This document shows positions 1,229 to 64,000 of a stretch of 64,000 nt of DNA, one piece after another (the first letter of the stretch is position 1; every line of letters begins with the position of its first letter). Both the position numbers and the translations under genes were made by a program. The notes below the pieces were generated by a model. That model saw nothing but the letters and a program-made list of their open reading frames with translations, was not told where the DNA came from and searched no databases. Location: the NCBI GenBank assembly GCA_022703585.1, contig JAKLDJ010000005.1, positions 69,353 through 133,352 of the forward strand. Direction: 5' to 3'. This DNA comes from Candidatus Omnitrophota bacterium. Lineage in GTDB: Bacteria; Omnitrophota; Gorgyraeia; Zapsychrales; JAKLDJ01.

Positions 1229-1984
1229 TTATAAGCTGCCTTGGAGATGGGTAAGAATATCGTTTTTGTCCATCGTACGCTGAGCAGAATCGGCCAATAA
1301 CTGGGCCACCTCCGCCGTTACCCGGGCACAAGCAAAAGAGGTCCCCTCCTGACCTCTTGTTTTTCCCTGGGCATAAACATCACAATGACGGCCGGAATAA
1401 CCGGCAATCTCGCCGTTTTTATTCAGCGCCCCTACCGAAATCACGTACGGACTCGAAGCGGGAAATGCCGGCTTAACGTCCTTGGAAACTTTGCAGACAT
1501 ACCCCTTCGAATCCGTCGCGAAGTGACTGGCCAGGGTCTTATTACCCCCGGCAGCAATAAACAAAACACCGTGGCTGGTGGCGGCATTGGTAATCGCGTT
1601 TTCGATCTCTTGGTCATATTTGGTAACAAGCGACATATTAACGATGCGGATATTGCGGTCCACACTCCACTGAATAGCCTTTAAAATAGCGTCCCGGGAA
1701 GGCTTAAAGTCCCCGCCGGTTTTTTCACAGACTTGCAGCATATAAATCTTAGCGGAAGGATTATTTTGTCGGATAAGCCTGGCAATCTCTGTCCCGTGGC
1801 CAAGCGGATCCTGTCTTGCCGGATAGGAGGTAAAACTTTCACCAGCGTCAACATAGGATCTCGCCCCGGAATCGATAATCGCAATACTGATTTCGTCCGC
1901 TGACAGAGACGGCCCAGCCATCACAATAAGCACCAATGCTAAGGCAAAAATCATTCCCTCAACCATCTTCTTTAATACGTTCAT
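1229..1984 (-). CDS. Secreted subtilisin-like serine peptidase (S8 family)
   Basis: 251-aa ORF with a signal peptide (MNVLKKMVEGMIFALALVLIVMAGPSLSA). It carries the catalytic triad motifs in D/H/S order: IAIIDSG (Asp), HGTEIA (His), GTSFACA (Ser). An RBS (GGAGAG) sits 7 nt upstream of the ATG. Confidence 0.85.
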   Translation of the reverse strand: MNVLKKMVEGMIFALALVLIVMAGPSLSADEISIAIIDSGARSYVDAGESFTSYPARQDPLGHGTEIARLIRQNNPSAKIYMLQVCEKTGGDFKPSRDAILKAIQWSVDRNIRIVNMSLVTKYDQEIENAITNAATSHGVLFIAAGGNKTLASHFATDSKGYVCKVSKDVKPAFPASSPYVISVGALNKNGEIAGYSGRHCDVYAQGKTRGQEGTSFACARVTAEVAQLLADSAQRTMDKNDILTHLQGSL

Positions 1985-2092: not shown

Positions 2093-2245
2093 AGGCGTTT
2101 TTGGCAAAAAAAACGCCTACTCGCTTAAATAAGTAGGCTCTCCGAACTCAACCGGCAACTGACTACCCGTCTCCGCATTAATCGGAGGTGTGGGCTCTAG
2201 AGTTTTGCGCCCCACGCTTTCGCGAGGTTTGCCCTTATCAATCGA
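2093..2245 (-). ncRNA. c-di-GMP-I (GEMM) riboswitch candidate: aptamer about 2135-2245 plus terminator expression platform about 2106-2138
   Basis: The minus-strand RNA reads ...AAGGGCAAACCUCGCGAAAGCGUGGGGCGCAAAACUCUAGAGCCCACACCUCCGAUUAAUGCGGAG... It contains GGGCAAACC, a GAAA tetraloop hairpin and a GGGNCGCAAA core that I recognise from the Vibrio Vc2 c-di-GMP-I aptamer (recalled from memory, not searched). It is followed by the hairpin GCCUACU..AGUAGGC plus U8. Confidence 0.6.
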
Positions 2246-2426
2246 GATTTGTTACTTAAACCAAATTGTCAATGGACCAATTTATCCCAACAATTGAAGT
2301 ATAGCCTATAAATACTCAAAAGGCAAGGCGGAGAAAAAGATTTTTATCAGGCCTATTTTAGAAACCCAAAAAGGGCCTTTTTTGGGAAAGCGCTCGTCTT
2401 TAAACAGCCGAAAAGCTCATCATGCT

Positions 2427-2852
2427 TTATTCCAGCGGCAGCTCAGGCAACTTATCCAGCAGAGGCAAAAGATAATCTTCCTCGACTTTAATGCGGCTTA
2501 ACATATCCTTGGAAAGTTGTATAAAGTCCAAGGGAAAATCCTTCGAACCTCTATCAGCCAATTCACCGGTATATTTTTCAAAAAATATGAGAAACCTGAT
2601 CTTGACCTCTTTAAGATCATGGATCAAAAACTCGATCATCTTTATGGACTGGCGGTCATTTTGATAAAAAGAACTTAGGCGCTCAAAAAGCTCTTTATCC
2701 TGGCCTCCAAAATGCGCCAGGAGCCTCTCTCGCATCTCGCAAACCCTGGGTTTCGCGGCCATATAGTTACGGGCCAAAGGCTGGATTCGGTCGATGGAGT
2801 CTACAATTGCCTGGTGGCTAACTTTCAGTCTTTCGATAAGCGCTTGGGACAT
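2427..2852 (-). CDS. Hypothetical protein (possibly a hemerythrin-like metal-binding fold)
   Basis: 141-aa ORF, co-directional with its neighbours. The sequence is helical with several His/Glu pairs (HQAIVDS, HFGGQDKE, HDLKE). I see no definitive motif. Confidence 0.5.
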   Translation of the reverse strand: MSQALIERLKVSHQAIVDSIDRIQPLARNYMAAKPRVCEMRERLLAHFGGQDKELFERLSSFYQNDRQSIKMIEFLIHDLKEVKIRFLIFFEKYTGELADRGSKDFPLDFIQLSKDMLSRIKVEEDYLLPLLDKLPELPLE

Positions 2853-2910
2853 AATAGTTTGCAGTATGATATTTGCTTCTATTTAAAGAAATATTTTCCC
2901 GGAAAGGCTA

Positions 2911-4875
2911 TCAGAATGTCTCGATGCCATGTTCCTTTAGAACAATCAGAGTGCAGTCGTCATGCTGAGGGGCGCGGCCGATAAAAGAGCTGATTTCCTT
3001 GGTAACTTCCCTTATAAGCTGAGAAGCGCTGTCATTCTCGCAAGCGCGCATTACCGAAAATAGCCTCTCTTCGCCAAAATCCTCTCTTCGCAAATTCTTG
3101 GCTTCCACAACGCCATCCGTGTAGAGAATGACGGTATCCCCGGGATCCAAAACAGCTTCTCCTTGAGAAAATTCAACACTGTTGACAAGCCCCAGAGGGA
3201 GCCCTTCTTTCGGTTGTATCTTTTCTACGGTATGGTCCTTTTTTCTCAAAATCAACGTAGGGCAATGCCCGGCATTGGCCACTAAGATTTTATGTTCGGG
3301 AACAATATAAATGACATAGGTCGCGGTAACGAAAATACCCGGATTGGTATTTCTGACCATCTCTTCATTAAGTTGAAAAAGCAGGTCGCTAGGCTCATCG
3401 CAAATCCCGGCCAGCATGCGGAATAGCGAAATGGCCTTGGCCATGACCAGCGCCGCCGGTACGCCCTTGCCAGAAACATCCCCGATAAATACGCCCATCC
3501 GGTACTTGCCCAGGGCATACATATCGTAAAGATCGCCGCCGACATGCTTAGCCGTGACCATGCTGGTCGCGATCTCCAGGCTGCCGAACCGTTCAATGGG
3601 CGAAGGCAGAAAACTGTCCTGGATCGACTTGGCAATCGAGAGCTCTTTCTCGACGAGTTCGTGCTTTCTGTTTTCTTCTAAGAAGTTATAAATGCTCACA
3701 CCCGTATTCATAAAAATCATCATAATAAACGGGCAAAAGACATCAATCCAAATCCCCCTGGTCATAAAGATCCCGAATGCGAAAGAGACAAAGAGAAAAG
3801 AATATCCAACCGTATACGAAAAAGCGGCAATCGGCTGATTCCGCTTGCGAGACGTAGTCAGAAACACAATTCCCAGGAGAATAAAAAGAATAATCAAATT
3901 CGTCTTGGCGCTAACCCGATAGACATAACGATCCAGCAGGATACTGCTGAAAATATTTGCATGCAACCCCACCATCGGGTATTCCTTTTCCAAGGGAATC
4001 GCCTGCAAGTCCGAGGTGCCGGTAGCCGTCATGCCCACAAAACAAACCGCTCCCTTAAAATCATCCAACGGTACCCGGGGGGCCTTTTTTGCGGCCCTAT
4101 CCTGCCATGCCCCCAAAACATCCACATAAGAATAATGTTTAAACGTCTGGCGCCAGCGGCCGGCATAATTCACCAGCATCGCCCCGCTGGAAGAAGTCGG
4201 AATGGTAAGCCGCGGGCCGATGGAGACCGCGTTCCAGTGAAAAACAATATTTTCTAAAGGAATACCCAAATAATCGCAGGCCATACGTAAGGAAATATGG
4301 GGCTTAAGCTCACCGTTAAAATCGATAAACAGCGGCACCCAGCGATTCTTTCCATCCGCATCCCGATAACTATTGATATATCCGGTGGCCTTGGCGGCAT
4401 CGGCGAGTTTGGGTAAAATCGAAGCCGCCATCCCCTTGGCCTTGGGTAATTTCTTGGATTGAAGATCGCTTTCGATCCGAAGGACGTAGGGCAGGTAAAC
4501 ATTGCCGGCATCCTTAACCGAGGCGCTAAAGGCATCGTCCTCTTGTGTCGGATCCGTAAAAATAACATCGAACATCACCTGCTTGGTGCCTAAGGCCGAG
4601 AGGACATCAACGAGACTGGCGTGAAAATCGCGAGGCAAAGGCCAATAGCCCAGACTTTTTAAGGTGTCATCGGAGATTTCAATAAGGATAATTTTATCGG
4701 AGAAATTCTGGACCGGACGCAAGAAAAACCGCAGATCCAGCAAGATGTTTTCGTAAGAATCCAGCAGCCGCCAGGAAGAGGTAAGAACAACCAGGATCAG
4801 GACGAGACAGAAAAAAACAAGTTTGACAATGCGTCTTCGGAGGGATGCGTTAAACGGTAAGATTTTTGAAAACAT
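2911..4875 (-). CDS. CHASE2 sensor domain / PP2C-family (SpoIIE/RsbU-like) serine phosphatase
   Basis: 654 aa. The N-terminal ~300 aa look like a CHASE2 periplasmic sensor, followed by a hydrophobic TM block, then PP2C motifs (GDVSGKGVPAALVMA, DGVVEAKN). Confidence 0.8.
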   Translation of the reverse strand: MFSKILPFNASLRRRIVKLVFFCLVLILVVLTSSWRLLDSYENILLDLRFFLRPVQNFSDKIILIEISDDTLKSLGYWPLPRDFHASLVDVLSALGTKQVMFDVIFTDPTQEDDAFSASVKDAGNVYLPYVLRIESDLQSKKLPKAKGMAASILPKLADAAKATGYINSYRDADGKNRWVPLFIDFNGELKPHISLRMACDYLGIPLENIVFHWNAVSIGPRLTIPTSSSGAMLVNYAGRWRQTFKHYSYVDVLGAWQDRAAKKAPRVPLDDFKGAVCFVGMTATGTSDLQAIPLEKEYPMVGLHANIFSSILLDRYVYRVSAKTNLIILFILLGIVFLTTSRKRNQPIAAFSYTVGYSFLFVSFAFGIFMTRGIWIDVFCPFIMMIFMNTGVSIYNFLEENRKHELVEKELSIAKSIQDSFLPSPIERFGSLEIATSMVTAKHVGGDLYDMYALGKYRMGVFIGDVSGKGVPAALVMAKAISLFRMLAGICDEPSDLLFQLNEEMVRNTNPGIFVTATYVIYIVPEHKILVANAGHCPTLILRKKDHTVEKIQPKEGLPLGLVNSVEFSQGEAVLDPGDTVILYTDGVVEAKNLRREDFGEERLFSVMRACENDSASQLIREVTKEISSFIGRAPQHDDCTLIVLKEHGIETF

Positions 4876-4927
4876 TCAATAGCCCTGAGGCATCATTGGG
4901 GTATTTTAAAAGAACTCTTGCGCTAAT

Positions 4928-5641
4928 TTATTTTATTGGCTTTTCTTTACCTTTATATAAAAGTTTCCAAGGATTGACCTTAACGTCAGCACTTAATTCT
5001 TCCAGATTCTTGCTGGTCGCATTTAAATTCGCCACAATCTCATCGATAGCCAAACGGTTGACCTTAAGCCGCTCATCAACATTGCCTGATATCGAAGAAA
5101 TATTCTTCATCGAAGTATTCATATTAGCGACGATATCATCGATCGCCTGGCTGTTAACCTTAAGCCGCTGGTTAATGTTTTCCGAAATCTCTTTTAAGCT
5201 GTCCGCAATCGCATCGCCTTTGGCCAGCAGGCGGTCAAAATCTATCGGCTCCTGCGCTTCAATCAAGGCATCCTGGGCTAAGAAATTTCCACCGGGGTTA
5301 CCGGCTGAAAGCTCGACATATTTCTCACCTAACATACCCATGATCTTTATAAATGCCTTGGCCCCTTCACGGATTTTGGCCTCTTCTTTAATCCATAGAG
5401 TCAACTCCATCTTGGTATCCTGGTCGTAAACAAGGCGAATATCCTTGACCGAGCCAACCTCCATACCGTTTAACCGTACGGGCGCGTTTTTTTCCAGGCC
5501 GTCAATACGATAGAAAGAAGTCTTTACCGTATAGCCCTGCTGGGTAAATTTGAAATTACCCACCTTGAAGGTTAAAAAAAGCAGCGCCGAAACCGCGATC
5601 GTTACCAGGATACCGATTTTTGCCTCATTTGTTAGCTTCAT
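4928..5641 (-). CDS. mlaD: MlaD (MCE-domain) phospholipid ABC transporter substrate-binding protein
   Basis: 237 aa with an N-terminal TM anchor, an MCE domain and a C-terminal coiled-coil repeat. It is adjacent to mlaF and mlaE. Confidence 0.8.
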   Translation of the reverse strand: MKLTNEAKIGILVTIAVSALLFLTFKVGNFKFTQQGYTVKTSFYRIDGLEKNAPVRLNGMEVGSVKDIRLVYDQDTKMELTLWIKEEAKIREGAKAFIKIMGMLGEKYVELSAGNPGGNFLAQDALIEAQEPIDFDRLLAKGDAIADSLKEISENINQRLKVNSQAIDDIVANMNTSMKNISSISGNVDERLKVNRLAIDEIVANLNATSKNLEELSADVKVNPWKLLYKGKEKPIK

Positions 5642-5656
5642 TCGTAGCTCCTTTGA

Positions 5657-6457
5657 TTATTCGGCTAGGTCTTTTAAATAATCATCGCCTTTGTCGATAA
5701 AATTAACCGGGCCTTCTGTTTCCCCGCGTATAAATTGTTGGACGATTGCATTCTTTGAATTTTTTATATCTTCGGGTGTTCCTATCTCCAGGACCCTGCC
5801 CGCGTGAAGCATCGCCACACGGTTGGCAATGCGAAAAACGCTGTTCATGTCATGGGTCACAACCACCGAAGTAATCAGCAGTTTCTTGCTTAAATCCAAA
5901 ATAAGCTTGTCGATAACGGCCGCGACAATGGGGTCAAGGCCGGCTGTAGGCTCGTCGTAAAAAACAATTTCCGGGTCCATGGCAATGGCCCGGGCAAGCC
6001 CCACCCTTTTTTTCATCCCGCCGGAGAGCATGCTCGGCATCAGATGTTCAAAACCCCTTAAACCCACAAGGCCTAATTTCATTTTCACGATGATATTGAT
6101 GATATGCGGATCCAGCTTGGTATGCTCACGCAAGGGCAAACTGACGTTATCCTCGACGCTCAACGAATCCAGAAGAGCCGAAGACTGAAAGCACATGCCA
6201 AATTTTCTTTTTGTTCTGTCCTTCTCGTCCTTGGAAAGCGTGGTCAAATCCCTGTCACCGATAAAAACCTTTCCCTTATCGGGAACCAGGGCTCCGGTCA
6301 TATGCCGCAATAAAGTACTTTTGCCACAACCTGACCCGCCCATGATAACAAAGGTTTCCCCCTGGTAGATATCCAGGTTGATGCCGTTTAAGACCTTGCG
6401 GTCTCCCAGGGTTTTATTAACATTCTGGACAGAAATGGCAACTTTTTTGTCTTCCAT
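5657..6457 (-). CDS. mlaF: MlaF ABC transporter ATP-binding protein
   Basis: Walker A GGSGCGKST, ABC signature LSGGMKKRVGLARA and Walker B FYDEP are present. Confidence 0.85.
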   Translation of the reverse strand: MEDKKVAISVQNVNKTLGDRKVLNGINLDIYQGETFVIMGGSGCGKSTLLRHMTGALVPDKGKVFIGDRDLTTLSKDEKDRTKRKFGMCFQSSALLDSLSVEDNVSLPLREHTKLDPHIINIIVKMKLGLVGLRGFEHLMPSMLSGGMKKRVGLARAIAMDPEIVFYDEPTAGLDPIVAAVIDKLILDLSKKLLITSVVVTHDMNSVFRIANRVAMLHAGRVLEIGTPEDIKNSKNAIVQQFIRGETEGPVNFIDKGDDYLKDLAE

Positions 6458-6463
6458 GTCGAC

Positions 6464-7261
6464 CTATAGGTTAGAAAAATAATAGATACCGGTTAAAACA
6501 CAGTCCGCGAGAATAATTAAAATGAAGCTCGTAACCACACTTAGAGTCGTGGCCTCGCCGACACCCACCGCTCCTTCGCGCGTCTTAATACCCTGATAAC
6601 AACCGACCAGCGAAATAATCAAAGCAAAAACAATAGATTTGGAAAGGCCGGTATAAATATCCTTAAGCGATAAAAATTTTAAGGCCGTTTGGATATACAA
6701 TGCCGAGTTGATCTTCAGATTAAAAACACCCATCAAATACCCGCCGAGCATACCCGAAAAATCCCCGATGATTGTCAGGCACGGCAACATAATCAACAGC
6801 GCCAGAACCTTGGGCGCCATAAGAAACCTGACCGGATGAATGGCCATGGTTTCTAGGGCTTCGATTTGCTCGGTAACCTTCATTGAACCGATTTCCGCGG
6901 TAATCGCCGCTCCGACCCGACCGGCGATAACAAGGGCGGTTAATACCGGCCCTAACTCGCGGCATAGGGAAATAGAGACAAGGCTAGAGACATATACCAC
7001 CGCACCGACCTGGGCCAGCTGGTAGGCCGCCTGCATCGCCAAAACAACGCCCGTAAAGAAGGTAACGAAGAAAACGATGACGATCGAGCGGATGCCCATA
7101 AAAACCATTTGCGTAAAGACGTGCGGCGTATTGAGAGGTTTTTTCTTAAAAGGGCCGACAAATATCCAATAGAGCGTCTCGGCGGAGAGCTTGGAAAAAT
7201 CAACAAGCACAAAACAGCCGTATTTTGTAAAAGCGCCTATTTTCTCAAAGAATTTAATCAT
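6464..7261 (-). CDS. mlaE: MlaE ABC transporter permease
   Basis: 265-aa polytopic protein. Conserved MlaE block: LCRELGPVLTALVIAGRVGAAITAEIGSMKVTEQIEALETMAI. Confidence 0.85.
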   Translation of the reverse strand: MIKFFEKIGAFTKYGCFVLVDFSKLSAETLYWIFVGPFKKKPLNTPHVFTQMVFMGIRSIVIVFFVTFFTGVVLAMQAAYQLAQVGAVVYVSSLVSISLCRELGPVLTALVIAGRVGAAITAEIGSMKVTEQIEALETMAIHPVRFLMAPKVLALLIMLPCLTIIGDFSGMLGGYLMGVFNLKINSALYIQTALKFLSLKDIYTGLSKSIVFALIISLVGCYQGIKTREGAVGVGEATTLSVVTSFILIILADCVLTGIYYFSNL

Positions 7262-7265
7262 GCGA

Positions 7266-7598
7266 TTACCCGGCCTTTACCACTTCGTCCACATTCGCAA
7301 AAATGCTGAAAAGCTTATCAAGTCTGGTGATTTCAAAGATACTCTTAATCTTTGCCGACATCTGCACCAGATACATATGCCCCTGGTTTTTCTTCAGCCT
7401 CTGCATCATCTCGATTAAGGTTGCCAGGCCCGAACTATCGATATAGGCTACTTTCGAAAAATCAACAACAATCTTGGAGACTTTACGTTCAACCAAGTCC
7501 GTAAAGGCTTTGCGCATCTGCGGAGAAGAATTAAGGTCTATCTCCCCCTCTATGGATACGACCATAAACCCGTTGATTTCGGATTGGCTAATATTCAT
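7266..7598 (-). CDS. STAS-domain protein (anti-sigma-factor antagonist RsbV/SpoIIAA-like; alternatively MlaB-like)
   Basis: 110 aa. The STAS fold carries the conserved phosphorylatable-serine motif YIDSSGL. It overlaps the upstream kinase gene by 4 nt and directly precedes mlaE. Confidence 0.8.
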   Translation of the reverse strand: MNISQSEINGFMVVSIEGEIDLNSSPQMRKAFTDLVERKVSKIVVDFSKVAYIDSSGLATLIEMMQRLKKNQGHMYLVQMSAKIKSIFEITRLDKLFSIFANVDEVVKAG

Positions 7599-8002
7599 CT
7601 TGCCCCCCTTTTTTTCTTCAGCTTTTTAATCATCCTCAGGCAACTGCCATTGCGCTCAAAAATAACCTTGTCCATTAATTTACGTATCAGAAAAACACCC
7701 CGCCCGCCGCACCGCTCTAAATTCTTCTCGTGGGTCGGATTCTTGCACGTCGTATGGTCAAAACCCTCGCCTTGGTCACGCACAACAATTTCGACCGCGT
7801 CCTTGCCCTTAACGACATCCACGTCAACGGTCAAACGAGGATCATTCTTATTGCCATGCTTCATGGCATTAATAAGGGCTTCCTCAAAACTCAATTTTAT
7901 ATCAAACAGTAGAGAAGAATCAAGCTTTAAATCGCTCAAGGAATCCAAAATCTTTTTGCTGGCGTGCTTGACGCTCTTTAAATCCGTCGGGAATCTATAC
8001 AT
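7595..8002 (-). CDS. Anti-sigma regulatory factor (RsbW/SpoIIAB-like Ser protein kinase, HATPase_c)
   Basis: HATPase_c motifs EALINAMKHG (N-box), DQGEGF (G1) and GRGVFLIRKLMD (G2). The track ORF starts at a TTG at 8110 and would overlap the upstream CBS gene. I moved the start to the internal ATG (M37) at 8002, giving 135 aa. Confidence 0.7.
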   Translation of the reverse strand: MYRFPTDLKSVKHASKKILDSLSDLKLDSSLLFDIKLSFEEALINAMKHGNKNDPRLTVDVDVVKGKDAVEIVVRDQGEGFDHTTCKNPTHEKNLERCGGRGVFLIRKLMDKVIFERNGSCLRMIKKLKKKRGAR

Positions 8003-8054
8003 TTTGATAAATAGTTTTGACTGATTTCTTTTAAAACCAACCTTTAAAACAGCC

Positions 8055-8447
8055 CTATTCAGGCTTGGGTGAAAGCGCCGCCACAAGATTGCGGCTGGAC
8101 ACAATGCCAATCAATTTTCCATCCTTGACGATGGGCAAGTGCCTAAAAGGCGACATGCACATAATTTCGTGAATCTTATTTAAGCCCTGACAGATATCGG
8201 CCGTGACCACTTTTTTAGTCATAATCGAGCGCACCTTCGTCTTTCGCGCCGGCAACTCGCCGCAAACCACCCTTTTAACAATATCGCGCTCGCTGACGAT
8301 ACCGGTAATCCGTTCTTTTTTTAAAATGACCACAGCGCCGATATTATGCTTCTTCATAAGATTGGCAACGTCGAAAACCGTATCGTTTTCTCCGGCAACC
8401 ACCACGCCGCTGGTGATCGAAATAGCAAAACCCGTCTGCTTTAACAT
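8055..8447 (-). CDS. CBS-pair domain protein
   Basis: 130 aa with two CBS repeats (ITGIVSERDIV... and LIGIVSSRNLV). Confidence 0.75.
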   Translation of the reverse strand: MLKQTGFAISITSGVVVAGENDTVFDVANLMKKHNIGAVVILKKERITGIVSERDIVKRVVCGELPARKTKVRSIMTKKVVTADICQGLNKIHEIMCMSPFRHLPIVKDGKLIGIVSSRNLVAALSPKPE

Positions 8448-8460
8448 CCCCTGGCTCCTT

Positions 8461-9204
8461 TCAACCTTTTTTAAGGGCCGTGTTCTCCTTCTGGAGAATG
8501 TCTAATTTAGCCTCGGCCTCTCTGAGCTCGTCTTTGATCTTTTCCATGCCTTCGAGTTTTGTCTTAAAATCTTCACAAATCTTTTCCAGGCCGGCGGTCT
8601 GGGTGCGATTCTTGGCCAATTCGAGCTGCGCCATTCGTTCCCGTTCGGTCAATTGGGCATTAAGCTCTTTTAACTTCGCTAATTCCCCGTTATCGCTCGC
8701 CATCGCCGGGGCTGAGGCCGCGCCGCCTTTTTTCTCCTGAAGATCCTTGACCTGCCCCTTCAGGCTTTCAATAAGCCCCAGCGCGCCCTGCGCTTGCTCG
8801 GTCATCTTGGCGGTAATCGCCGCAATCTCGCTTTCCAAATGCTGAATTTTCTGCTGGTCGGCTTCTTTTTCGGCTTTTAACTGTTCGGCGAGCGCCTGTG
8901 CTTCAGTAATCCGTGCCCGGCTTTTTGACTCTAAATCATCGACGACGGCCCTGGCCTCCTGTTCGGCCTTACTGGTCAGCTCGAGGCTTTCGCGGACCGC
9001 CTCGAGTTCTCCCGACAAAACCGTCAATTCCGTTTTTGTTTTCTTTTCTGAATCTTTGGCAAGAATAAGATTTCTCTCAGCGGTTTCCAGTTGAGCACGC
9101 GGAACAATCGACTGCGGGTCGGGAATGGAAAAATACGCCCTGAATAAGAATACGACACCTGCGATAAAAAGAATGATCCCAAAGACGCTGAACGCGACTA
9201 CCAT
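8461..9204 (-). CDS. Membrane-anchored coiled-coil protein, function unknown
   Basis: 247 aa: an N-terminal TM helix, then ~200 aa of charged heptad-like coiled coil (E/K/A/L-rich). Confidence 0.6.
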   Translation of the reverse strand: MVVAFSVFGIILFIAGVVFLFRAYFSIPDPQSIVPRAQLETAERNLILAKDSEKKTKTELTVLSGELEAVRESLELTSKAEQEARAVVDDLESKSRARITEAQALAEQLKAEKEADQQKIQHLESEIAAITAKMTEQAQGALGLIESLKGQVKDLQEKKGGAASAPAMASDNGELAKLKELNAQLTERERMAQLELAKNRTQTAGLEKICEDFKTKLEGMEKIKDELREAEAKLDILQKENTALKKG

Positions 9205-9233
9205 GCCATTGCTTTCCTTAAATCACTCCGTTA

Positions 9234-9590
9234 TTACTTTTCAAAAACAATTCTTTCTTCGCCTGATTCGGAAACAACCCGCGCCCGATATCCCATCTTC
9301 ACTAAACAAGCAACAGTCTTCTTTTTTATCCTTGAGGCTAATGCCGGATCACGCAAAATCTTTTGTGCCATCTCAACATATTCCCGCATCACCTCATCGG
9401 AGAACTGTTTAAGATATTTCGCTGTCCGTTCATTGGTCAGCTGCGCATTTCCATTTGCTTCGCGAGAAATCCGGATACCTTCTGCGGCCATGCGGGCATA
9501 TTCATCTTCACTCATCGCCCAGCCTTGGCCGACGAGCATCAACAACGCTACAACGACAGAAATACAGTACTTTTTAATTCTTTTCGGCAT
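9234..9590 (-). CDS. Small secreted hypothetical protein
   Basis: The track ORF (start 9680) overlaps hldD. The internal Met at 9590 (MPKRIKKYCISVVVALLMLVGQGWA, a signal peptide) abuts the hldD stop. Confidence 0.45.
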   Translation of the reverse strand: MPKRIKKYCISVVVALLMLVGQGWAMSEDEYARMAAEGIRISREANGNAQLTNERTAKYLKQFSDEVMREYVEMAQKILRDPALASRIKKKTVACLVKMGYRARVVSESGEERIVFEK

Positions 9591-9591
9591 C

Positions 9592-10581
9592 CTAGAGATA
9601 GGCGTGTCGCGAAAGATATCCTGCATAATCCGCGACCGCATCCTCCAATTCCGTAAAAGATTTTTGGTAGCCGCTTGCACGCAATTTATTCATATCGGCT
9701 TGCGTAAAATACTGATACTGCGCGCGCATGTATTCCGGCATATTAATATACTCGATAATCGGCTTTTTGCCAACTGCTTTAAAAAGAGCATGCGCAAGGT
9801 CATTCCAACTGCGCGCCTTACCGGTTCCGACGTTATAAATGCCGCCGAGGGAAGGGTTGCTAAAGAAATACATTACCACATCCACGGCATCCTTGACATA
9901 AATAAAATCCCGTTTTTGCTCTCCGTCTGCATATTCCTTTTTATAAGATTTGAAAAGCCCCATCTTGCCTTCTTTAACAACCCGTTCATGGGCCTTGGCA
10001 ACAAGGCTGCGCATTTCGCCCTTGTGGTATTCGTTAGGCCCGAAGACATTAAAAAACTTCAGGCCCGTGAACTTATCGACCGCACCGTGGTCCAAAACCC
10101 ATTCGTCGAATTTTTGCTTCGATTTTCCGTACAGGTTAAGAGGCTTGCAGCGGCGGGTCGAGGCATCATCATCGTGATAGCCCTGAGCGCCGTCTCCGTA
10201 AGTAGCGGCCGAACTGGCATAAATCAACTTTACCTTGTGATGCAGGCACCACTCGGCTATTTTGCGGGAATACCCAAAATTATTTTCTTCGAAATAAGCC
10301 GCATCCTGCAGAATCGTCGAACTGCAAGCCCCCATATGGATAACGCAATCGACGGAGGGCTGAAGCTTGTCAAGGCTGACAAACTCGATAAATTCTTTTT
10401 TATCCAGATATTGGGAGAATTTCTTGTTCTTTAAATTTTCTTTCTTAAGATCGTCGTCCATGTGGTCGACAGCGACGATATCGTTTCGGCCGGCCGAATT
10501 AAGAGCAGCCAGTATGCAGCTTCCGATAAAACCTGCGGCTCCGGTTAAGACAATCAATCTTTGTTCCTTTCTAAATGTCAA
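9592..10581 (-). CDS. hldD: ADP-L-glycero-D-manno-heptose 6-epimerase
   Basis: 329-aa SDR. Motifs VLTGAAGFIGS, LIYASSAATYG, YGKSK (YxxxK), FFNVFGPNEYHKG and YQYFTQADMNKLRASGY match the HldD/RfaD family closely. Confidence 0.85.
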   Translation of the reverse strand: MTFRKEQRLIVLTGAAGFIGSCILAALNSAGRNDIVAVDHMDDDLKKENLKNKKFSQYLDKKEFIEFVSLDKLQPSVDCVIHMGACSSTILQDAAYFEENNFGYSRKIAEWCLHHKVKLIYASSAATYGDGAQGYHDDDASTRRCKPLNLYGKSKQKFDEWVLDHGAVDKFTGLKFFNVFGPNEYHKGEMRSLVAKAHERVVKEGKMGLFKSYKKEYADGEQKRDFIYVKDAVDVVMYFFSNPSLGGIYNVGTGKARSWNDLAHALFKAVGKKPIIEYINMPEYMRAQYQYFTQADMNKLRASGYQKSFTELEDAVADYAGYLSRHAYL

Positions 10582-13276: not shown

Positions 13277-14464
13277 TTAAATCTTTACACCGGGGATATC
13301 ATCGATATTGAGGCGAACACGAATATCCTTGTAAATCTCCTCCAGATTGACGCTATGGGTAGGACGGCATAGCAGGTATCCTTGCCCGGCATCAACTCCG
13401 AGGTCAATTAAGATGTCCAAGTCTTCTTTTTGCTCGATGCCTTCGGCGATGGAGATAATATTATTTTCCTTGCAAAAAGAAACGATAAACTTGACCAAGC
13501 TGCGCCGGATAGGATCGTTCTTCAAGTTTTGGATCAGATGGATATCAATCTTGACGACTGAGGGCCTTATTTCGACAATCGATTCAAGGCTGGCATAGCC
13601 CCCACCGACATCATCGATCGCAATATCAAAACCATAGTTACGATAAAACCTTAGGCGTTCATAAAAAGAATTGTAATCAGATACCAGCGAACGTTCGGTT
13701 AATTCCAGGACGATATTCTTAGGATTAACGTTATTTTTATCAAAAATCGATTTGATCTTAAAGAATTTCGGGCTTTCGACAAAAAACGGATTACAGTTTA
13801 AGAATAATCTCGCCTCTTCGGAACAACGAGGCATGGATTCCAGGGCCTTTTGCCAGGAAATCATTTCAAGATCGCAATATAAGCCGAACCGTAGCGCGGC
13901 TTTAAACAGCAGCTCGGGATTGGACAATATGCTCTTGATAGGCGGCCGGCTTAGGGCTTCGAACCCGAATATCCTGAAGGGTTTAAGGAAAAATATCGGC
14001 TGATAAAAAGGAATGACCAACTCTTCTTTGACAATCTTTTTTAACTCAAGAATAACAACCTCATTATCGCTCGTTGACTCATCAAAGAATACGCTACGGC
14101 GCAGGACCGCCTCCATCCGCGCCAGCAACTCTTCATGATCAAAAGGCTTGGTCAAATAATCATCGGCCCCCAGATAAAGGCCTTCGATTTTGTCTTCAAA
14201 CAAATATTTTACGCTAACAATAATAATGGGGATATGGCGAGTGGTTTTTCCTTCGCGCAGGCGCCGGCAGACTTCGAAACCCTCAACGTCCGGGAGAATA
14301 AGATCCAATAAAATTAAATCCGGCTTGGTCATGGCTTTCTCTATAGCCGCCGAGCCGGAATCTGCAATGTCTACCTCATAGCCTCTGGTTTCCAATATGA
14401 GGGACATCATTTGGGCGATATTTCTTTCGTCATCAACGATAAGTACGCGTTTCTTGTTCGTCAT
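13277..14464 (-). CDS. Response regulator receiver + EAL domain protein (c-di-GMP phosphodiesterase)
   Basis: 395 aa. REC domain (VLIVDDE, phospho-acceptor in DLILPD) plus EAL motifs (FEALSRP, ELTERS, IAIDDVGGGYASL, IKIDIHLI, AEGIE). Confidence 0.85.
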   Translation of the reverse strand: MTNKKRVLIVDDERNIAQMMSLILETRGYEVDIADSGSAAIEKAMTKPDLILLDLILPDVEGFEVCRRLREGKTTRHIPIIIVSVKYLFEDKIEGLYLGADDYLTKPFDHEELLARMEAVLRRSVFFDESTSDNEVVILELKKIVKEELVIPFYQPIFFLKPFRIFGFEALSRPPIKSILSNPELLFKAALRFGLYCDLEMISWQKALESMPRCSEEARLFLNCNPFFVESPKFFKIKSIFDKNNVNPKNIVLELTERSLVSDYNSFYERLRFYRNYGFDIAIDDVGGGYASLESIVEIRPSVVKIDIHLIQNLKNDPIRRSLVKFIVSFCKENNIISIAEGIEQKEDLDILIDLGVDAGQGYLLCRPTHSVNLEEIYKDIRVRLNIDDIPGVKI

Positions 14465-57038: not shown

Positions 57039-57488
57039 CTACTTTGCATTCTCCAGAATTTCGTTAGCCCGGCCCAAAAGTTCTTTGGCCTTATCCAATA
57101 AATTTCTAGCGCCTTCTTTAGAAAACTCGTTCTCATAATCCGCATTCTCACGCAGGGTTTTTGCCGTCTGTAATGCCTCGATTAAATTAACGTCGAGTAA
57201 ACCCTTGGCAACAAAAAATGCCTTTATCGCCGCAATCAAGCAATAGTGGCTTCTTTCCCGGTATCCCTTCGAATAAATGAGAGCCCGTGCTGCATGAAAC
57301 ATGGCATAATACCCCTGGATCGTCGCCCATTTGAAACTGCCATCGTCAAAGCTATTCTCGGCAGTCTTTAGATCGTCACGGGCGGTTTTTAATTCCTTAG
57401 GTGCCAATTTTACCGCAGCAGCGAATTTCTTGATCTTGCCTTTCGACAAACATTCCTTCAAATCCTGATCTTCTATTCCTTTTCCCAT
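57039..57488 (-). CDS. HEPN-domain protein (putative toxin of a HEPN/MNT type VII TA pair)
   Basis: 149 aa, all-helical. It overlaps the upstream nucleotidyltransferase gene by 16 nt. It has a C-terminal LRENADYE block where the HEPN R-x4-6-H motif sits, with Tyr in the position where His is expected. Confidence 0.65.
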   Translation of the reverse strand: MGKGIEDQDLKECLSKGKIKKFAAAVKLAPKELKTARDDLKTAENSFDDGSFKWATIQGYYAMFHAARALIYSKGYRERSHYCLIAAIKAFFVAKGLLDVNLIEALQTAKTLRENADYENEFSKEGARNLLDKAKELLGRANEILENAK

Positions 57489-58009
57489 AAAACAATTCCC
57501 TTTTTAATTTCTTCATAGAAAACCGGCTCTTTTTTGTCAAAGCCCATATATTCTTGCGGGCTCTTAACAACAAGTTGGATCTTTTCTTTTAACCGTGGCT
57601 GGGATAAGACGAGCGCCCGCACCTTTTCCTTATCGTTTGATACCACAAAAATATCGATATCGCTTTTTTCGGTATCTTCGCCTAACGCACAGCTGCCAAA
57701 AAGAACAGCACGCTGTGATAGGCCCTTCACCTGTTCAACCAAGGGCTCCAGCATGCTGACATTCTTCAGGATCTTATACTGCCGGACAGTCGCTGATTTC
57801 GGGTCAACGCTGTAAAAGATCATCCGCCCTTTTTGTTCCGTCTTAAGCAAACCCTCTTTGGCCATCTGACGCAAGGCCTGATTGGTCCCGCCCTTGCTTA
57901 AAAGCGTATGCAAGGCAATTTCTGCCCCGTAAAAGGACACGTGAGGATTCCGGCAGAGAAAGTCCAGAATCTTTTGCTCGGCTGTGGATGAAAATCTGTC
58001 TTTTTTCAT
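57473..58009 (-). CDS. Minimal nucleotidyltransferase (MNT) with N-terminal winged helix (putative antitoxin)
   Basis: Nucleotidyltransferase motif LFGSCALGEDTEKSDIDIFVV (GS...DxD). An N-terminal wHTH-like region is present. Confidence 0.75.
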   Translation of the reverse strand: MKKDRFSSTAEQKILDFLCRNPHVSFYGAEIALHTLLSKGGTNQALRQMAKEGLLKTEQKGRMIFYSVDPKSATVRQYKILKNVSMLEPLVEQVKGLSQRAVLFGSCALGEDTEKSDIDIFVVSNDKEKVRALVLSQPRLKEKIQLVVKSPQEYMGFDKKEPVFYEEIKKGIVLWEKE

Positions 58010-60135: not shown

Positions 60136-62613
60136 TCAGATATCAATGATCTTCATAACTTCGTCGCCATAGTGATTGATGACCTTCACGGCGATTTTGC
60201 CGGTTCTGGGTTTTGAAAATGGGCGGGAAATGGTGGAATAAAGATCGTCCCAGGCATCTTCTTTGATATCAGCCTTAAGGGCTTTCTTTAGTTTTTCGTA
60301 AGGTTTATCTGCACCAAGAAAATATGCATGCGTGACGAAGAAGGCTTCCCCATTGTAATTCGTATCAATGAACCAAGCGGCAATATCATGCTCTGGGTCA
60401 CCTGATCCGCTGGAGCGTATTTCACTTTTGACTGGGTCGTATATATCCACGCCGACTATTTCAACCACGATCCCCTCTTTGGTCTGTTTTATTTTTACTT
60501 CTGGCTCCCCAAAGGCAAGGAAAAGATTACCTGAGCCGGTTTTCTTTAAGAGATCACCCATGGAAAGATCGGGGTTAATCTTAACTTTCATTACGCGCAA
60601 TTTCTCGAATTCAGAGGGTTCGGAAAAAGCGGATGCCTCAAATGAAGTTGCCGCAACCACAAGAAGATCAGCAAATTTCTTAGCTACTTTCGCAGCATCG
60701 CGAACAAAATCATCATCAACGCTACCAAATTCAGGACCAATAGCCACAGCAACTTTCTTCAACCCTTGCTCCGTTTTATACTCGCCTGAAGCTTGTATTT
60801 CGGGCCCGCCGGGTAAAATATCTAAATTTACAAATTCTACCCTTGCTCCTTTTTTACCTGTTTGCACACCCGCTTTAAGAAGATTTGTAACTATAGTTTC
60901 CACAAAACGTTCAGAAGAGACCATCTCTTGGACGTCAGAAATACGATGAGGAGAAAGGGATTCAACAGTAAATGGTCCAGAAACGCGAACTATGTCGTTG
61001 TTTTCGACGGGTTGATCATATAAAACTTCTTGGCCTGCCGGCTCATCATTAGCAAGAGATCTTAAGGTAACATGTGGCACTGTTTTGTATTCAAAACCAG
61101 TAAAAATACTATGCTCATCTTTGAGCTTGTAATAGGAGAATTTGGCTGTCATCAGCCGTGTGCGCGCTAAAGCTAAAGCAACGCGCGAAGTATCAATAGT
61201 AATCCACCGTCTCCCCCACTGTTCAGCGACATAAGCGGTAGTCCCAGAACCACAAGTCGGATCGAGAATTAGATCCCCCGGGTCAGAAGTCATGAGAATG
61301 CACCGTTGAATAACAGTCGCCCCAGTTTGAACAACATACACTTTATCCTGCTGCCCTGTCGTATCTGTCCAAGTTGCTAATAGACTTGTGACGGGAAAAT
61401 CATCCGAAAATAACTTGTAAGTAAGTAAATTTCCCTTTACTGTTAACCGATTTCTTTTTTCAAGATTTTTTATTCCAGCTTCTGTTGTGCCATAACCATT
61501 CCCAGTAGGAGGATATTCCTTACCTTTAAACTTATATGTAAACTGTCCACTATCATTAGTACCAGTAGTTTTAAGGGACTTTTTCAGAAATACTCTGGCA
61601 CCAGGAGGTAGCAATTTATGATCATTAATTTGCTCTAAGGTCATCTGATGTTCAGACCCATTTGACAATTCATACCAACCGTAATCTTTATTCCTTTCAA
61701 CAGAATACGGCAAAAATAACTGACGATATTTAACCTTGATCTTTCCAGCACTATCTATCCTTTGCTTGGCATACCAAAGAATAAAATCATACATTTGCTC
61801 TAGAAGATTTGCTCCGAGTGGCATAGTTTTTTTTCGAAATGGAATTAAAGCAACAAAATTTTCTGACCCGAAAGCTTCATCCATAAGATTACGCACCAAA
61901 TGGATATTCTCATCTGAAATTTGAACAAAACATGAGCCGCTCTCAGTAAGAAGTTCTCTCCCAACGACTAAACGATCTCTGAGGTAAGATAGATAGGAAT
62001 GGATTCCGAGCTCCCAGGTATCGCGAAAAGCCTTAATTTGTTCAGGCTGACGAATAAAATCTTCTATTTTGTCTTTAACGTCTTTTTTCCTAGTAGAAAT
62101 CTGCCAATTCGAACCAAATTTAATGCCATAAGGCGGATCGATATAAATCGTCTGTACCTTACCGCGCATGCCTTCTTTTTCTAACAGGCTATTCATCGCG
62201 AGGAACGAATCACCTAAAATCATGCGATTCTGCCAATTATCCTCGTGCTTATAAAACTCAACGGCTTTATCAAACTGTTGCTGTGTTGTTTCACCAAAAA
62301 GAGTCAGCTGCATTTCATCTTTAGCCCCCTGTTTTAACCTCGCTATAATGGCCTCGGGAGCTATTTTTTCTTGAACGTAAATAGGAACCGTTGAAACAGA
62401 TAACTCGCTTCCCGCTTCTTTCTTCCCGGCCCAAACCAACTGTGGGTCAAGAGAAGGATCGTAATCATATCTTTTCTTTACTGGTTGCTTCTCGCGTGGA
62501 GATAGCTTGACGGATTCTTCTTGGGTAGGAATACGTTTACGCTTATCTTTATGTTTATAGGACGATACTGCCGCGGCATCAGTGGTCCGGGGCTCTAACC
62601 TTTTTCTTCTCAT
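60136..62613 (-). CDS. mod: Type III restriction-modification methyltransferase (Mod), beta-class N6-adenine/N4-cytosine MTase
   Basis: 825 aa. Motif IV IYIDPPYG precedes motif I LDPTCGSGTT (beta permutation). There is an ATGA overlap with the upstream res gene. Confidence 0.85.
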   Translation of the reverse strand: MRRKRLEPRTTDAAAVSSYKHKDKRKRIPTQEESVKLSPREKQPVKKRYDYDPSLDPQLVWAGKKEAGSELSVSTVPIYVQEKIAPEAIIARLKQGAKDEMQLTLFGETTQQQFDKAVEFYKHEDNWQNRMILGDSFLAMNSLLEKEGMRGKVQTIYIDPPYGIKFGSNWQISTRKKDVKDKIEDFIRQPEQIKAFRDTWELGIHSYLSYLRDRLVVGRELLTESGSCFVQISDENIHLVRNLMDEAFGSENFVALIPFRKKTMPLGANLLEQMYDFILWYAKQRIDSAGKIKVKYRQLFLPYSVERNKDYGWYELSNGSEHQMTLEQINDHKLLPPGARVFLKKSLKTTGTNDSGQFTYKFKGKEYPPTGNGYGTTEAGIKNLEKRNRLTVKGNLLTYKLFSDDFPVTSLLATWTDTTGQQDKVYVVQTGATVIQRCILMTSDPGDLILDPTCGSGTTAYVAEQWGRRWITIDTSRVALALARTRLMTAKFSYYKLKDEHSIFTGFEYKTVPHVTLRSLANDEPAGQEVLYDQPVENNDIVRVSGPFTVESLSPHRISDVQEMVSSERFVETIVTNLLKAGVQTGKKGARVEFVNLDILPGGPEIQASGEYKTEQGLKKVAVAIGPEFGSVDDDFVRDAAKVAKKFADLLVVAATSFEASAFSEPSEFEKLRVMKVKINPDLSMGDLLKKTGSGNLFLAFGEPEVKIKQTKEGIVVEIVGVDIYDPVKSEIRSSGSGDPEHDIAAWFIDTNYNGEAFFVTHAYFLGADKPYEKLKKALKADIKEDAWDDLYSTISRPFSKPRTGKIAVKVINHYGDEVMKIIDI

Positions 62614-64000
62614 AGATTAGTCTCTAATTTATCAAAACCATTTTGCAATCTAGCTCGTATTAAATTTTGTACTTCGTGGATATCTTGTACCTCTAAAATA
62701 GCCCATTTACCAAACTTTCCGATATTGTTTATGGCAGGAACCCATAATTCACGAGTCGTCTTAATCTTTATTATCTTTTTATCATCTTTCTTCCCAGTCA
62801 CTTCAATTATCAAACTTAAGACTGATTTATCGGGTAGCTCAAGCTTCACAATAAAATCGGGAATATAGGGATGTCCTACTCCTTGGTACTCATAAGGAAT
62901 GGCAAACCCCATATTCTGGTTCTTAACATAGGACAAAACCTCTAGCATCTGCTCTAACCTTGTCGCAACTCCCTGCTCCCATTCTTTAGTATCAGCTACA
63001 ACGTAATTAACATGGCTCTTGACTGTCGCCTGCACTTCTTTGGTAGTCAAGAAATCCACGTATCGAGTAGAGCCCAAAGTATCATAAGGAGCAAGAACTG
63101 GTAGGAGCTTCTTTTCTTTCTGTTGATCAAGGTTCTCAGCTACGATTCCCTGCTGAATTTTAGTAAGCGCACCAGAGAAATATTCGCCCACAGATAGATA
63201 GCCAATAACCATGCGGTCTTTTAATACAACATAGCCCTTAATATATTCTTCGCAGATTTTCTTAAGCTGTGGAAATAACCAGTATTTTTCCGTTCCGTCA
63301 GCGTCCATATAGTAACGTTTAAGCAAAGACTCAGCAAGCCGTATTGTTACCTCACCTTCCCTACGACTTTTTATCTTCTCAAGCTTTTCTACGGTTGTAT
63401 CTCCGATGATGCCACCTGAAGTAACTTCTGTGGGCTCATTTTCAATAATGGTTCTCGATTCTTCGGTAAACCGAGCTTTCAACTTTGTCTCATCTAACTC
63501 ATATCGATATCCTTCAACGCGCGGGAATGTAATCTCATATTGCTCGCGTTCCTGTAAAGCACGAACACGGTGGATAACTTTTGGTGGCTGAGGAGGAGTA
63601 ACGCCTTCAGATTTTAAGAAACTAAAAGGCACACCGTACACTTCAGCGTATTCGGGCGCCATGAGACCGTTCTCCTCATTAACATCATAATCAACGCGCC
63701 TCAAGGCACGGCCTACTACTTGTTCACACAAAAGCTGAGTCGAGAATGCTCGAATACCTAAAATGTGAGTAACGGTATTCACATCCCACCCTTCAGTGAG
63801 CATGGAAACAGATACTACACATTTGATATTTTCACCTAGCTTACCCGGCTTTCCAACGGTATTCATTACCTCTCGCAAAAGTTCTTCATCGCTAGGATCA
63901 TCTCTTCCCGGAAAACGATGTCGATATTCTTTATGAAAATCTCCAATTTCTTTAGTAAAGATCTTTTTGAAGTCGTCGTTTATTTTTTCACCACTTTCCA
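62610..64000 (-). CDS. res: Type III restriction enzyme Res subunit, partial (5' end beyond window)
   Basis: The track ORF starts at a TTG. Hand translation shows the reading frame continues with no stop to the window edge (...GGEKINDDFKKIFTKEIGDFHKEYRHRFPGRDDPSDEELLREV...). Helicase motifs V/VI are present (SVSMLTEGWDVNTV, QVVGRALRR). The C-terminal domain is PD-(D/E)xK-like (IPDFIVKL...LIIEVTGKK). Confidence 0.8.
   Translation of the reverse strand, partial: ESGEKINDDFKKIFTKEIGDFHKEYRHRFPGRDDPSDEELLREVMNTVGKPGKLGENIKCVVSVSMLTEGWDVNTVTHILGIRAFSTQLLCEQVVGRALRRVDYDVNEENGLMAPEYAEVYGVPFSFLKSEGVTPPQPPKVIHRVRALQEREQYEITFPRVEGYRYELDETKLKARFTEESRTIIENEPTEVTSGGIIGDTTVEKLEKIKSRREGEVTIRLAESLLKRYYMDADGTEKYWLFPQLKKICEEYIKGYVVLKDRMVIGYLSVGEYFSGALTKIQQGIVAENLDQQKEKKLLPVLAPYDTLGSTRYVDFLTTKEVQATVKSHVNYVVADTKEWEQGVATRLEQMLEVLSYVKNQNMGFAIPYEYQGVGHPYIPDFIVKLELPDKSVLSLIIEVTGKKDDKKIIKIKTTRELWVPAINNIGKFGKWAILEVQDIHEVQNLIRARLQNGFDKLETNL

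Follow-up and report, generated by a model that had tools for sequence, protein, structure and literature searches.

In Escherichia coli, Acinetobacter baumannii and Pseudomonas aeruginosa, the MlaFEDB lipid transporter is encoded by one operon that contains the genes for the permease MlaE, the ATPase MlaF with its C-terminal extension, the MCE protein MlaD and, at the operon end, the single-domain STAS protein MlaB. MlaB adopts a minimal STAS fold of four strands and three helices, devoid of a fifth strand and of a last helix, and Kolich et al. (PMC7367683) raised its phosphoregulation at Thr52 as an open possibility, no kinase or phosphatase being known. STAS proteins are also found in partner-switching modules, such as the Bacillus RsbU/RsbP-RsbV-RsbW-sigmaB and SpoIIE-SpoIIAA-SpoIIAB-sigmaF systems. 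Here we describe a locus of an uncultivated Candidatus Omnitrophota bacterium in which genes of both kinds are interleaved. The locus lies in a stretch of 64,000 nucleotides (assembly GCA_022703585.1, contig JAKLDJ010000005.1, positions 69,353 to 133,352), hereafter called the window, to which all coordinates refer unless a locus is named. It comprises six genes on the minus strand, transcribed in the order kinase, STAS, mlaE, mlaF, mlaD and CHASE2-PP2C phosphatase. We propose, with moderate confidence, that they constitute one signalling-plus-transport unit, in which a phospho-switchable, MlaB-like STAS subunit would gate a MlaFED-type transporter.

With MlaFEDB, the locus shares an operon encoding MlaE, MlaF with its extension, MlaD and a single-domain STAS protein, together with a serine or threonine at an equivalent position (Ser55 here, Thr52 in MlaB). 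It differs in that the STAS gene precedes mlaE, whereas mlaB closes its operon, and in that the STAS protein is a 110-residue protein of apparently full RsbV/SpoIIAA type, accompanied by a dedicated kinase and a sensor phosphatase. In addition, no annotated gene in the window or its flanks has a MlaC or MlaA domain, in agreement with a survey by Grasekamp et al. (PMC10665443) in which MlaA, MlaB and MlaC were mostly proteobacterial. With the Bacillus modules, the locus has in common the same three protein families with their catalytic and acceptor residues intact, and kinase and STAS genes that are adjacent and overlapping. Unlike in Bacillus, three ATP-binding cassette (ABC) transporter genes separate the STAS gene from the phosphatase gene, the input is a periplasmic CHASE2 domain, and no sigma factor gene accompanies the module, whether within the operon, elsewhere in the window or among the conserved flanking genes.

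Partner switches with an output other than a sigma factor are known, for example, HsbR-HsbA of P. aeruginosa and Pseudomonas putida, SypE-SypA of Vibrio fischeri, and HenR with a STAS-glycosyltransferase in Anabaena. In these systems, the phosphorylation state of the STAS protein controls a non-transcriptional or non-sigma target, the Anabaena case also concerning envelope biogenesis; the target proposed here, by contrast, is an ABC lipid transporter. The Chlamydia Rsb module (RsbU, RsbV1/2, RsbW) resembles ours in that its PP2C is a membrane protein that senses in the periplasm and in that no dedicated alternative sigma factor adjoins the module; as far as published accounts say, its genes lie outside any mla operon. 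Chlamydiae are PVC-group (Planctomycetes-Verrucomicrobia-Chlamydiae) relatives, and the RsbU sensor domain is presumably not a CHASE2 domain.

The searchable literature yielded no partner-switching case with an ABC lipid transporter as the target, and in full text no paper linked Rsb-type kinases or phosphatases with Mla, or Omnitrophota with either. The sole trace was Supplementary Data 1 of PMC10665443, in which a STAS gene just upstream of mlaE-F-D is entered as 'MlaB in cluster' for two of five Omnitrophica genomes, with no mention of a kinase or phosphatase in the table. For these two genomes, Ca. Omnitrophus magneticus and Omnitrophica WOR_2 SM23_29, the table contains a further MlaE and MlaD to which no STAS protein is assigned, O. 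magneticus having a complete second MlaE-MlaF-MlaD set (PMC10665443).

Organization of the six-gene block

All six genes were found on the minus strand in the order given by the initial annotation, the coordinates of which were right throughout except for the start of the kinase gene. The first gene encodes an RsbW/SpoIIAB-type serine protein kinase with a HATPase_c_2 domain (7595..8002, 135 aa; PF13581, E = 1e-25) and the second a single-domain STAS protein of the RsbV/SpoIIAA, or anti-sigma antagonist, type (7266..7598, 110 aa; PF01740, E = 2e-24). They are followed by the genes for a MlaE-family lipid ABC transporter permease (6464..7261, 265 aa; PF02405, E = 4e-77), a MlaF-like ABC ATPase with a C-terminal extension (5657..6457, 266 aa; top NCBIfam match, MlaF) and a MlaD/MCE protein (4928..5641, 237 aa; PF02470, E = 2e-19). 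A CHASE2-PP2C membrane sensor phosphatase closes the block, as had been annotated, its gene at 4875..2911 encoding 654 aa with both the CHASE2 (PF05226, E = 1.4e-46) and the SpoIIE/PP2C (PF07228, E = 2.5e-48) domains. The kinase had initially been given a TTG start at 8110; we rejected this codon because it creates a 56-nt overlap with the upstream CBS gene and because public gene calls use the ATG at 8002, which is almost certainly the true start.

The genes are closely packed. The TGA stop codon of the kinase gene overlaps the ATG of the STAS gene in the sequence ATGA (7598..7595); the 4 nt initially reported to separate the two genes are in fact a 4-nt overlap. The spacer between STAS and mlaE is indeed 4 nt long (7265..7262), and the remaining gaps measure 6 nt (mlaE-mlaF), 15 nt (mlaF-mlaD) and 52 nt (mlaD-PP2C). 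Scanning positions 2200-9800 for promoters and terminators yielded nothing above shuffled expectation and no terminator-like site in the intergenic spacers inside the block. By tblastn, the 64-kb window contained no second STAS, kinase, PP2C or Mla gene. A STAS protein of identical sequence is encoded on contig DAOOUB010000002.1 of the metagenome-assembled genome (MAG) GCA_035390605.1.

Conservation of the gene arrangement across Omnitrophota

A scan of one genome per species returned at least 558 loci with a STAS relative, and we analysed the best 80, all from Omnitrophota, in which the STAS protein was 44 to 63% identical to that of the window. In each locus, open reading frames (ORFs) were called and then labelled by BLASTP against the window proteins. 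Relatives of the STAS protein were almost all labelled Candidatus Omnitrophota. The kinase gene stood directly upstream of STAS in 74 loci, out of 76 in which the sequence extended far enough to show it; mlaE, mlaF and mlaD followed STAS in 64 of 65, and a CHASE2-PP2C gene was present at most 7 kb downstream in 45 of 51. The initial annotation had left conservation of the context in related genomes to be checked, and these counts bear it out: the gene arrangement is conserved far beyond chance. Spacing was conserved as well, with medians of 3.5 nt for kinase-STAS, 10 nt for STAS-mlaE and 4 nt for mlaE-mlaF, and with a STAS-mlaE spacer of 20 nt or less in 62 of 73 loci. Such tight packing is the pattern expected of co-translated subunits.

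The same order, accA - kinase - STAS - MlaE - ABC_tran - MlaD, was found around two STAS relatives that rank among the most divergent (P0114 and P0110, 42 to 49% identical), the loci of which were checked via independent gene calls and precomputed Pfam matches. In locus L087, MlaD is followed by a FecR gene, a gene of unknown function and CHASE2/SpoIIE, and locus L086 ends soon after mlaD. The flanks, by contrast, vary by lineage. Many loci are flanked by accA and by genes for a LysM-YkuD transpeptidase, DUF212, GTP cyclohydrolase I, MnmE and a Mur ligase, and the lineage of the window has CBS and coiled-coil genes upstream. Since the flanks vary and the module and the mla genes are kept, the conserved unit is exactly the signalling module plus the transporter.

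Three further observations concern these loci. The accA gene, which encodes the acetyl-CoA carboxylase carboxyltransferase alpha subunit, lies directly upstream of the kinase gene in about 31 of them (L026:3718-4686, L086:6552-7589 and L087:6603-7559, for instance), and there it is preceded by genes for a LysM-YkuD L,D-transpeptidase and DUF212, which places fatty-acid and envelope genes beside the lipid-transport module. An apparent mlaE-mlaF fusion in L011 was discarded as an artefact of masked bases, visible as XXX in the translation. Finally, L027 and L029, on the 21-kb contig JBHPFV010000032.1 of the single amplified genome AM-311-K22, show the operon in both orientations with two convergent CHASE2-PP2C copies; this double operon is probably a palindromic chimera from single-cell amplification.

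The STAS protein carries a phosphorylatable serine

The initial annotation had noted a phosphorylatable serine of the DSSGL type in the STAS protein, and we found it within the motif Y-I-D-S55-S-G-L-A-T (Ser55/Ser56). The stretch D54-S55-S56-G-L-A-T was invariant in 27 aligned homologues obtained by protein search, and DSSGLAT was also invariant in the scanned loci, though these had partly been selected by the same motif. The protein scored 91.8 bits against the anti-sigma antagonist model TIGR00377 (cut-off, 53). A profile built from the 27 homologues matched TM1442 (4.5e-21), SpoIIAA (3e-17) and RsbV (5e-16) in the PDB, and MlaB chains with E values of 2.5e-4 to 6e-4. The AlphaFold2 model (predicted local distance difference test score [pLDDT], 93.6) contains a fifth strand at residues 98-100 and a C-terminal helix at residues 103-109, both of which it adds to the minimal fold of MlaB. 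In Foldseek, it superposed on SpoIIAA from the SpoIIAB complex with a template modelling (TM) score of 0.89 and a root mean square deviation of 1.6 A, the MlaB chains coming at ranks 44 and 47 with TM scores of 0.64 and 0.54. The comparison of profiles and structures that had been suggested for this protein therefore decides for RsbV/SpoIIAA and not for MlaB: the STAS protein is of the anti-sigma-antagonist type by every test and should not be filed in the MlaB family.

What the protein does have in common with MlaB is its location in the same operon as mlaF, mlaE and mlaD and a serine or threonine at the Thr52 position, at the start of helix 2. In an hhalign alignment (probability, 93%), Ser55 fell on E. 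coli MlaB Thr52 (YIDSSGLA versus RVDTGGLA), with an offset that agrees with the PDB profile match of residues 44-88 to 41-85. Thr52 lies at the centre of the E. coli MlaF-MlaB interface, and the T52E substitution weakens MlaF binding (PMC7367683). In SpoIIAA-type proteins, the additional strand and helix lie against the side of the sheet that faces away from helices 1 to 3 (PMC7367683), and they probably need not block a MlaB-like contact.

The kinase and the phosphatase retain their catalytic residues

The top NCBIfam matches of the kinase were RsbW and SpoIIAB, both below their equivalog cut-offs. Across 79 orthologues, the N-box residues E41, N45, G50 and N51 and the G2 box G100-R-G102 were invariant or nearly so; in the G1 box, D76-x-G78-x-G80, both glycines were invariant and D76 was kept in 76 of the 79. 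In two other species, represented by different Omnitrophota MAGs, the kinase and STAS reading frames are joined in frame into ORFs of 247 aa (L024:607-1347) and 250 aa (L072:4907-5656). The joined frames could be genuine fusions, or a single-base error of the assembly at the ATGA overlap could have produced them; they fit a direct kinase-substrate pair.

Hydrophobic segments read off the translation give the phosphatase a transmembrane helix, a periplasmic CHASE2 domain (about residues 26-336), three further transmembrane helices and a cytoplasmic PP2C/SpoIIE domain (residues 459-647). Its metal-binding residues Asp448, Asp466, Asp587 and Asp639/640 were kept in 47 to 48 of 48 orthologues. Judged by their conserved catalytic and acceptor residues, the kinase, the phosphatase and the STAS protein all look functional. 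The locus thus combines a STAS protein with a phosphorylatable serine, an adjacent HATPase_c_2 kinase and a PP2C phosphatase with metal-binding aspartates, as a partner-switching module does. What it does not combine with them is a sigma factor. No sigma-factor Pfam domain was present in any gene of at least 150 aa in the 64-kb window, and no sigma factor was found among the conserved flanking genes of the 80 loci, which agrees with the initial annotation.

The transporter has a MlaF with the C-terminal extension

MlaE scored 239 bits against TIGR00056 (cut-off, 212), and the 120 best-matching clusters all showed 69% identity or more to it. MlaF reached 236 bits with the NCBIfam model for MlaF, below the E. 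coli-type equivalog cut-off of 441, and it aligned end to end, extension included, with the MlaF structures of A. baumannii, P. aeruginosa and E. coli. The extension spans residues about 246-266, ETEGPVNFIDKGDDYLKDLAE, and the aligned region of roughly 25 residues reads GETEGPVNFIDKGDDYLKDL in the window versus GIADGPVPFRYPAGDYHADL in E. coli. Y260 occupies the position of E. coli Tyr261 and L264 that of E. coli Leu265, the two residues that insert into the MlaF-MlaB groove. All 69 Omnitrophota orthologues possess the extension (G249-P250 in 99% and F253 in 90% of them; L, F or I at position 264 in 64 of 69), and in the PDB the tail alone matched, weakly, only the MlaFs of MlaB-containing systems. 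Retention of the extension points to a MlaB-like partner.

MlaD consists of an N-terminal transmembrane helix, a MCE domain and a C-terminal helical region, and it scored 95 bits against TIGR04430, below the cut-off of 135. With the MlaE-family permease and the MlaF-type ATPase, this MCE protein completes a MlaFED core. The translation further reveals, at about residues 150-215 of MlaD, a motif some 38 residues long (RLKVNsqAIDdIVANmN...) that occurs twice in tandem. This MlaD is of the 'long' type without a beta-barrel, a type that has been reported for PVC-group bacteria.

Evolutionary distances of the STAS protein track those of MlaF

Mirror-tree and covariation analyses were carried out on 64 paired species. 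After removal of the shared phylogenetic signal, STAS distances tracked those of MlaF best, with a partial r of 0.36 (bootstrap confidence interval, 0.20 to 0.49); MlaF came first among the partners in 85% of bootstraps, and none of 500 permutations attained the observed value. Only the known MlaE-MlaD pair ranked higher, at 0.53. Covariation between columns, computed as mutual information with average product correction for STAS against the kinase, MlaF, MlaE and MlaD, was uninformative: the STAS columns R29, I62 and Q66 coupled with every partner and are clade defining.

Additional FecR and beta-barrel genes

In most Omnitrophota forms of the operon, two additional genes are inserted between mlaD and the CHASE2-PP2C gene; they were seen in about 26 loci (e.g., L012:10725-12517 and L087:10700-12630). 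The first encodes a FecR-domain protein that is about 265 aa long and has a signal peptide. The product of the second, about 340 aa long, likewise has a signal peptide; it matches beta-barrel porins weakly and has an aromatic residue at its C terminus (...Y-x-F), as in outer-membrane beta-barrel proteins. The two proteins could be co-sensors of the CHASE2 phosphatase, or they could form the outer-membrane end of a lipid route. CHASE2 sensors beside FecR-domain proteins occur elsewhere: in the Burkholderia 'BiofilmReg' operon, a CHASE2 membrane sensor is likewise encoded next to a secreted FecR-domain protein (PMC5192318), with the difference that the output there is a histidine kinase and here a PP2C phosphatase, and that an outer-membrane beta-barrel gene is also present here.

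In the lineage of the window, the FecR and beta-barrel genes do not lie between mlaD and the phosphatase gene. A FecR homologue of this lineage is encoded outside the window on the same strand, about 4 kb past the phosphatase gene (L001:18704-20128). It is a protein of 474 aa with a C-terminal Hint/pretoxin-HINT domain, an unusual combination, and its gene comes after a subtilase gene (window 1984..1229) and two genes without a Pfam match.

Proposed mechanism and alternative explanations

The conserved arrangement suggests that phosphorylation of a small protein that binds the transporter switches lipid transport on and off. In the mechanism that we favour, the transporter would be MlaF2E2D6-like, with the RsbV-type STAS protein as its cytoplasmic accessory subunit. 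Like E. coli MlaB, unphosphorylated STAS would contact the helical subdomain of one MlaF and, on the adjacent MlaF, the C-terminal extension, and this binding would stabilize or activate the MlaF ATPase. Phosphorylation of Ser55 by the RsbW-type kinase would release STAS and turn transport down, and the CHASE2-PP2C phosphatase would strip the phosphate once its periplasmic domain is triggered. The same helical face of STAS would bind either the kinase or MlaF, hence a partner switch in which the transporter replaces the sigma factor. In most of the phylum, sensing would probably be performed jointly with the periplasmic FecR-domain protein and the outer-membrane beta-barrel, and, overall, lipid trafficking would come under post-translational gating by a cue from the envelope or the surface. 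The binding of STAS to MlaF, the direction of the switch and the signal are the parts of this mechanism that we infer. Its extension to a trans-envelope circuit, running from the outer-membrane beta-barrel through the FecR protein and CHASE2-PP2C to the phosphorylation state of STAS and its binding to MlaF, is possible, and we advance it more tentatively than the switch itself. Of the interpretation offered in the initial annotation, the functional link between module and transporter is strongly supported by the tightly packed, phylum-wide synteny and by the lack of a sigma factor in the window and the conserved flanks, and the proposal that the STAS protein doubles as a MlaB-like subunit receives indirect support from the equivalence of Ser55 with Thr52, the MlaF extension and the mirror-tree signal; its fold and its failure to match the MlaB model speak against a simple identity with MlaB.

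Several observations weigh against a MlaB-like switch. The STAS protein scored 29.2 bits against the MlaB model NF033618, the cut-off of which is 90, and according to its predicted structure it has the full-length SpoIIAA/RsbV fold and not the minimal MlaB fold, so that taken alone it looks like an ordinary anti-sigma antagonist. E. coli MlaB T52A is non-functional but still binds MlaF (PMC7367683), which implies that the role of this residue is not a simple one. When the best 120 relatives retrieved with a concatenated STAS-MlaE query were inspected, no natural STAS-MlaE fusion was found, all being MlaE-only proteins of 233 to 281 aa. In L013, the kinase, STAS and PP2C genes are adjacent with no mla genes between them, and six loci have no phosphatase gene downstream. 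Lastly, the STAS-MlaF mirror-tree signal is modest, and the method gives 0.13 for the known MlaE-MlaF contact.

The best-surviving alternative is a classical partner switch in which the kinase is an anti-sigma factor for a distant sigma factor, either one encoded elsewhere or the primary one, as has been proposed for Chlamydia, with STAS serving only as an antagonist and the mla genes merely co-transcribed, for example, as members of an autoregulated envelope-stress operon. It would accommodate the bona fide RsbV/RsbW-class sequences and folds of STAS and the kinase, the L013 arrangement of three adjacent signalling genes without mla, and the precedent of Chlamydia, where RsbU has a periplasmic sensor and the Rsb module is adjoined by no sigma factor of its own. 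We nevertheless consider it unlikely, because no sigma factor appears in the 64 kb or in any conserved flank, because the interleaved gene order and the STAS-mlaE coupling are kept over deep divergence, neither of which co-transcription alone requires, and because the retained MlaF extension implies a MlaB-like partner.

The synteny that underlies the phospho-switchable STAS subunit would equally be explained if the kinase were the effector, that is, if the RsbW-like protein inhibited MlaF or MlaE and unphosphorylated STAS sequestered it. Such a scheme follows canonical partner-switching logic, and the kinase-MlaF residual correlation of 0.24 is the highest of the four pairings of the kinase. 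However, the only structurally documented contact between a STAS protein and an ABC transporter is the direct one of MlaB with MlaF, and both the MlaF extension and the equivalence of Ser55 with Thr52 are more simply explained by direct binding of STAS; we therefore regard an effector kinase as distinctly improbable. Least probable of all, in our estimation, is another non-sigma target, such as the envelope-glycan machinery, cyclic di-GMP (c-di-GMP) enzymes or fatty-acid synthesis, the mla adjacency then reflecting a shared envelope theme in a system resembling HsbA, SypA or Anabaena HenR-STAS: modules with non-sigma outputs are known, accA lies upstream in about 31 loci and a REC-EAL gene and a glycan cluster are nearby in the window, but none of these neighbours is conserved phylum-wide like mlaEFD, and those of the window are not translationally coupled to the module.

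Genes surrounding the block

A CBS-pair protein (8055..8447, minus strand, 130 aa; PF00571 in two stretches) is encoded 52 nt upstream of the kinase gene, where there is also a gene for a coiled-coil membrane protein, and a hemerythrin-like protein (2427..2852, minus strand, 141 aa; PF01814, E = 3.5e-6) is encoded 58 nt downstream of the phosphatase gene. We rejected all three as core parts of the system, as they are kept only in the closest relatives. Matches to the CBS protein of the window were labelled in three loci only (L004, L006 and L010), and a hemerythrin-like gene followed PP2C or mlaD only in L004, L005, L006, L008 and L010. The CBS-pair and hemerythrin-like genes are thus lineage-specific accessories outside the phylum-wide core.

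The rest of the window is mostly devoted to envelope-glycan biosynthesis and also contains glycogen phosphorylase and molybdopterin genes. A surface-glycan or envelope biosynthesis cluster of about 33 kb occupies positions of about 17100-50300 on the minus strand. It encodes two YfhO-family proteins (907 and 739 aa), GT2 and GT9 glycosyltransferases, several S-adenosylmethionine (SAM) methyltransferases, radical-SAM and thiamine pyrophosphate-dependent enzymes, NAD-epimerases and a FemAB-like acetyltransferase, as well as large proteins without a Pfam match (595 and 711 aa). About 5 kb upstream of the operon, positions 13277-14464 encode a REC-EAL response regulator of the c-di-GMP phosphodiesterase type, a homologue of which is found near the operon in about eight other loci (e.g., L005:1343-2530).

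Between 58000 and 64000, the G+C content is 0.41 to 0.42, compared with 0.45 to 0.50 elsewhere in the window. This region contains the gene for a N6/N4 DNA methylase of 825 aa (62613..60136), which overlaps that for a 422-aa protein without a Pfam match (63878..62610), and a gene for a MarR-nucleotidyltransferase protein (58009..57473) lies just before it. The region may be a restriction-modification or mobile island.

Implications

This operon offers a natural system in which to study the regulation of Mla and other MCE lipid transporters and to address the question of MlaB phosphoregulation. With a STAS protein that has the equivalent serine, and with a kinase and a phosphatase encoded around mlaFED, that question becomes testable with recombinant proteins. 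Should the proposed switch fail to be confirmed, the locus remains a clear example of partner switching without a sigma factor, in a phylum about which little is known. If the switch is confirmed, partner switching would extend from transcription to the direct control of an ABC transporter; no earlier ABC transporter would have been demonstrated as the target of such a module, and the kinase and phosphatase would be the first natural pair for a MlaB-type protein. It would also suggest that canonical MlaB is a stripped-down descendant of a phospho-switch protein, or a parallel to one. Envelope sensing, through CHASE2, FecR and the outer-membrane barrel, would be linked to lipid trafficking, and in the very small, possibly host-dependent Omnitrophota this link could make the uptake of lipids or the remodelling of the envelope respond to a cue from the surface or from contact with a host.

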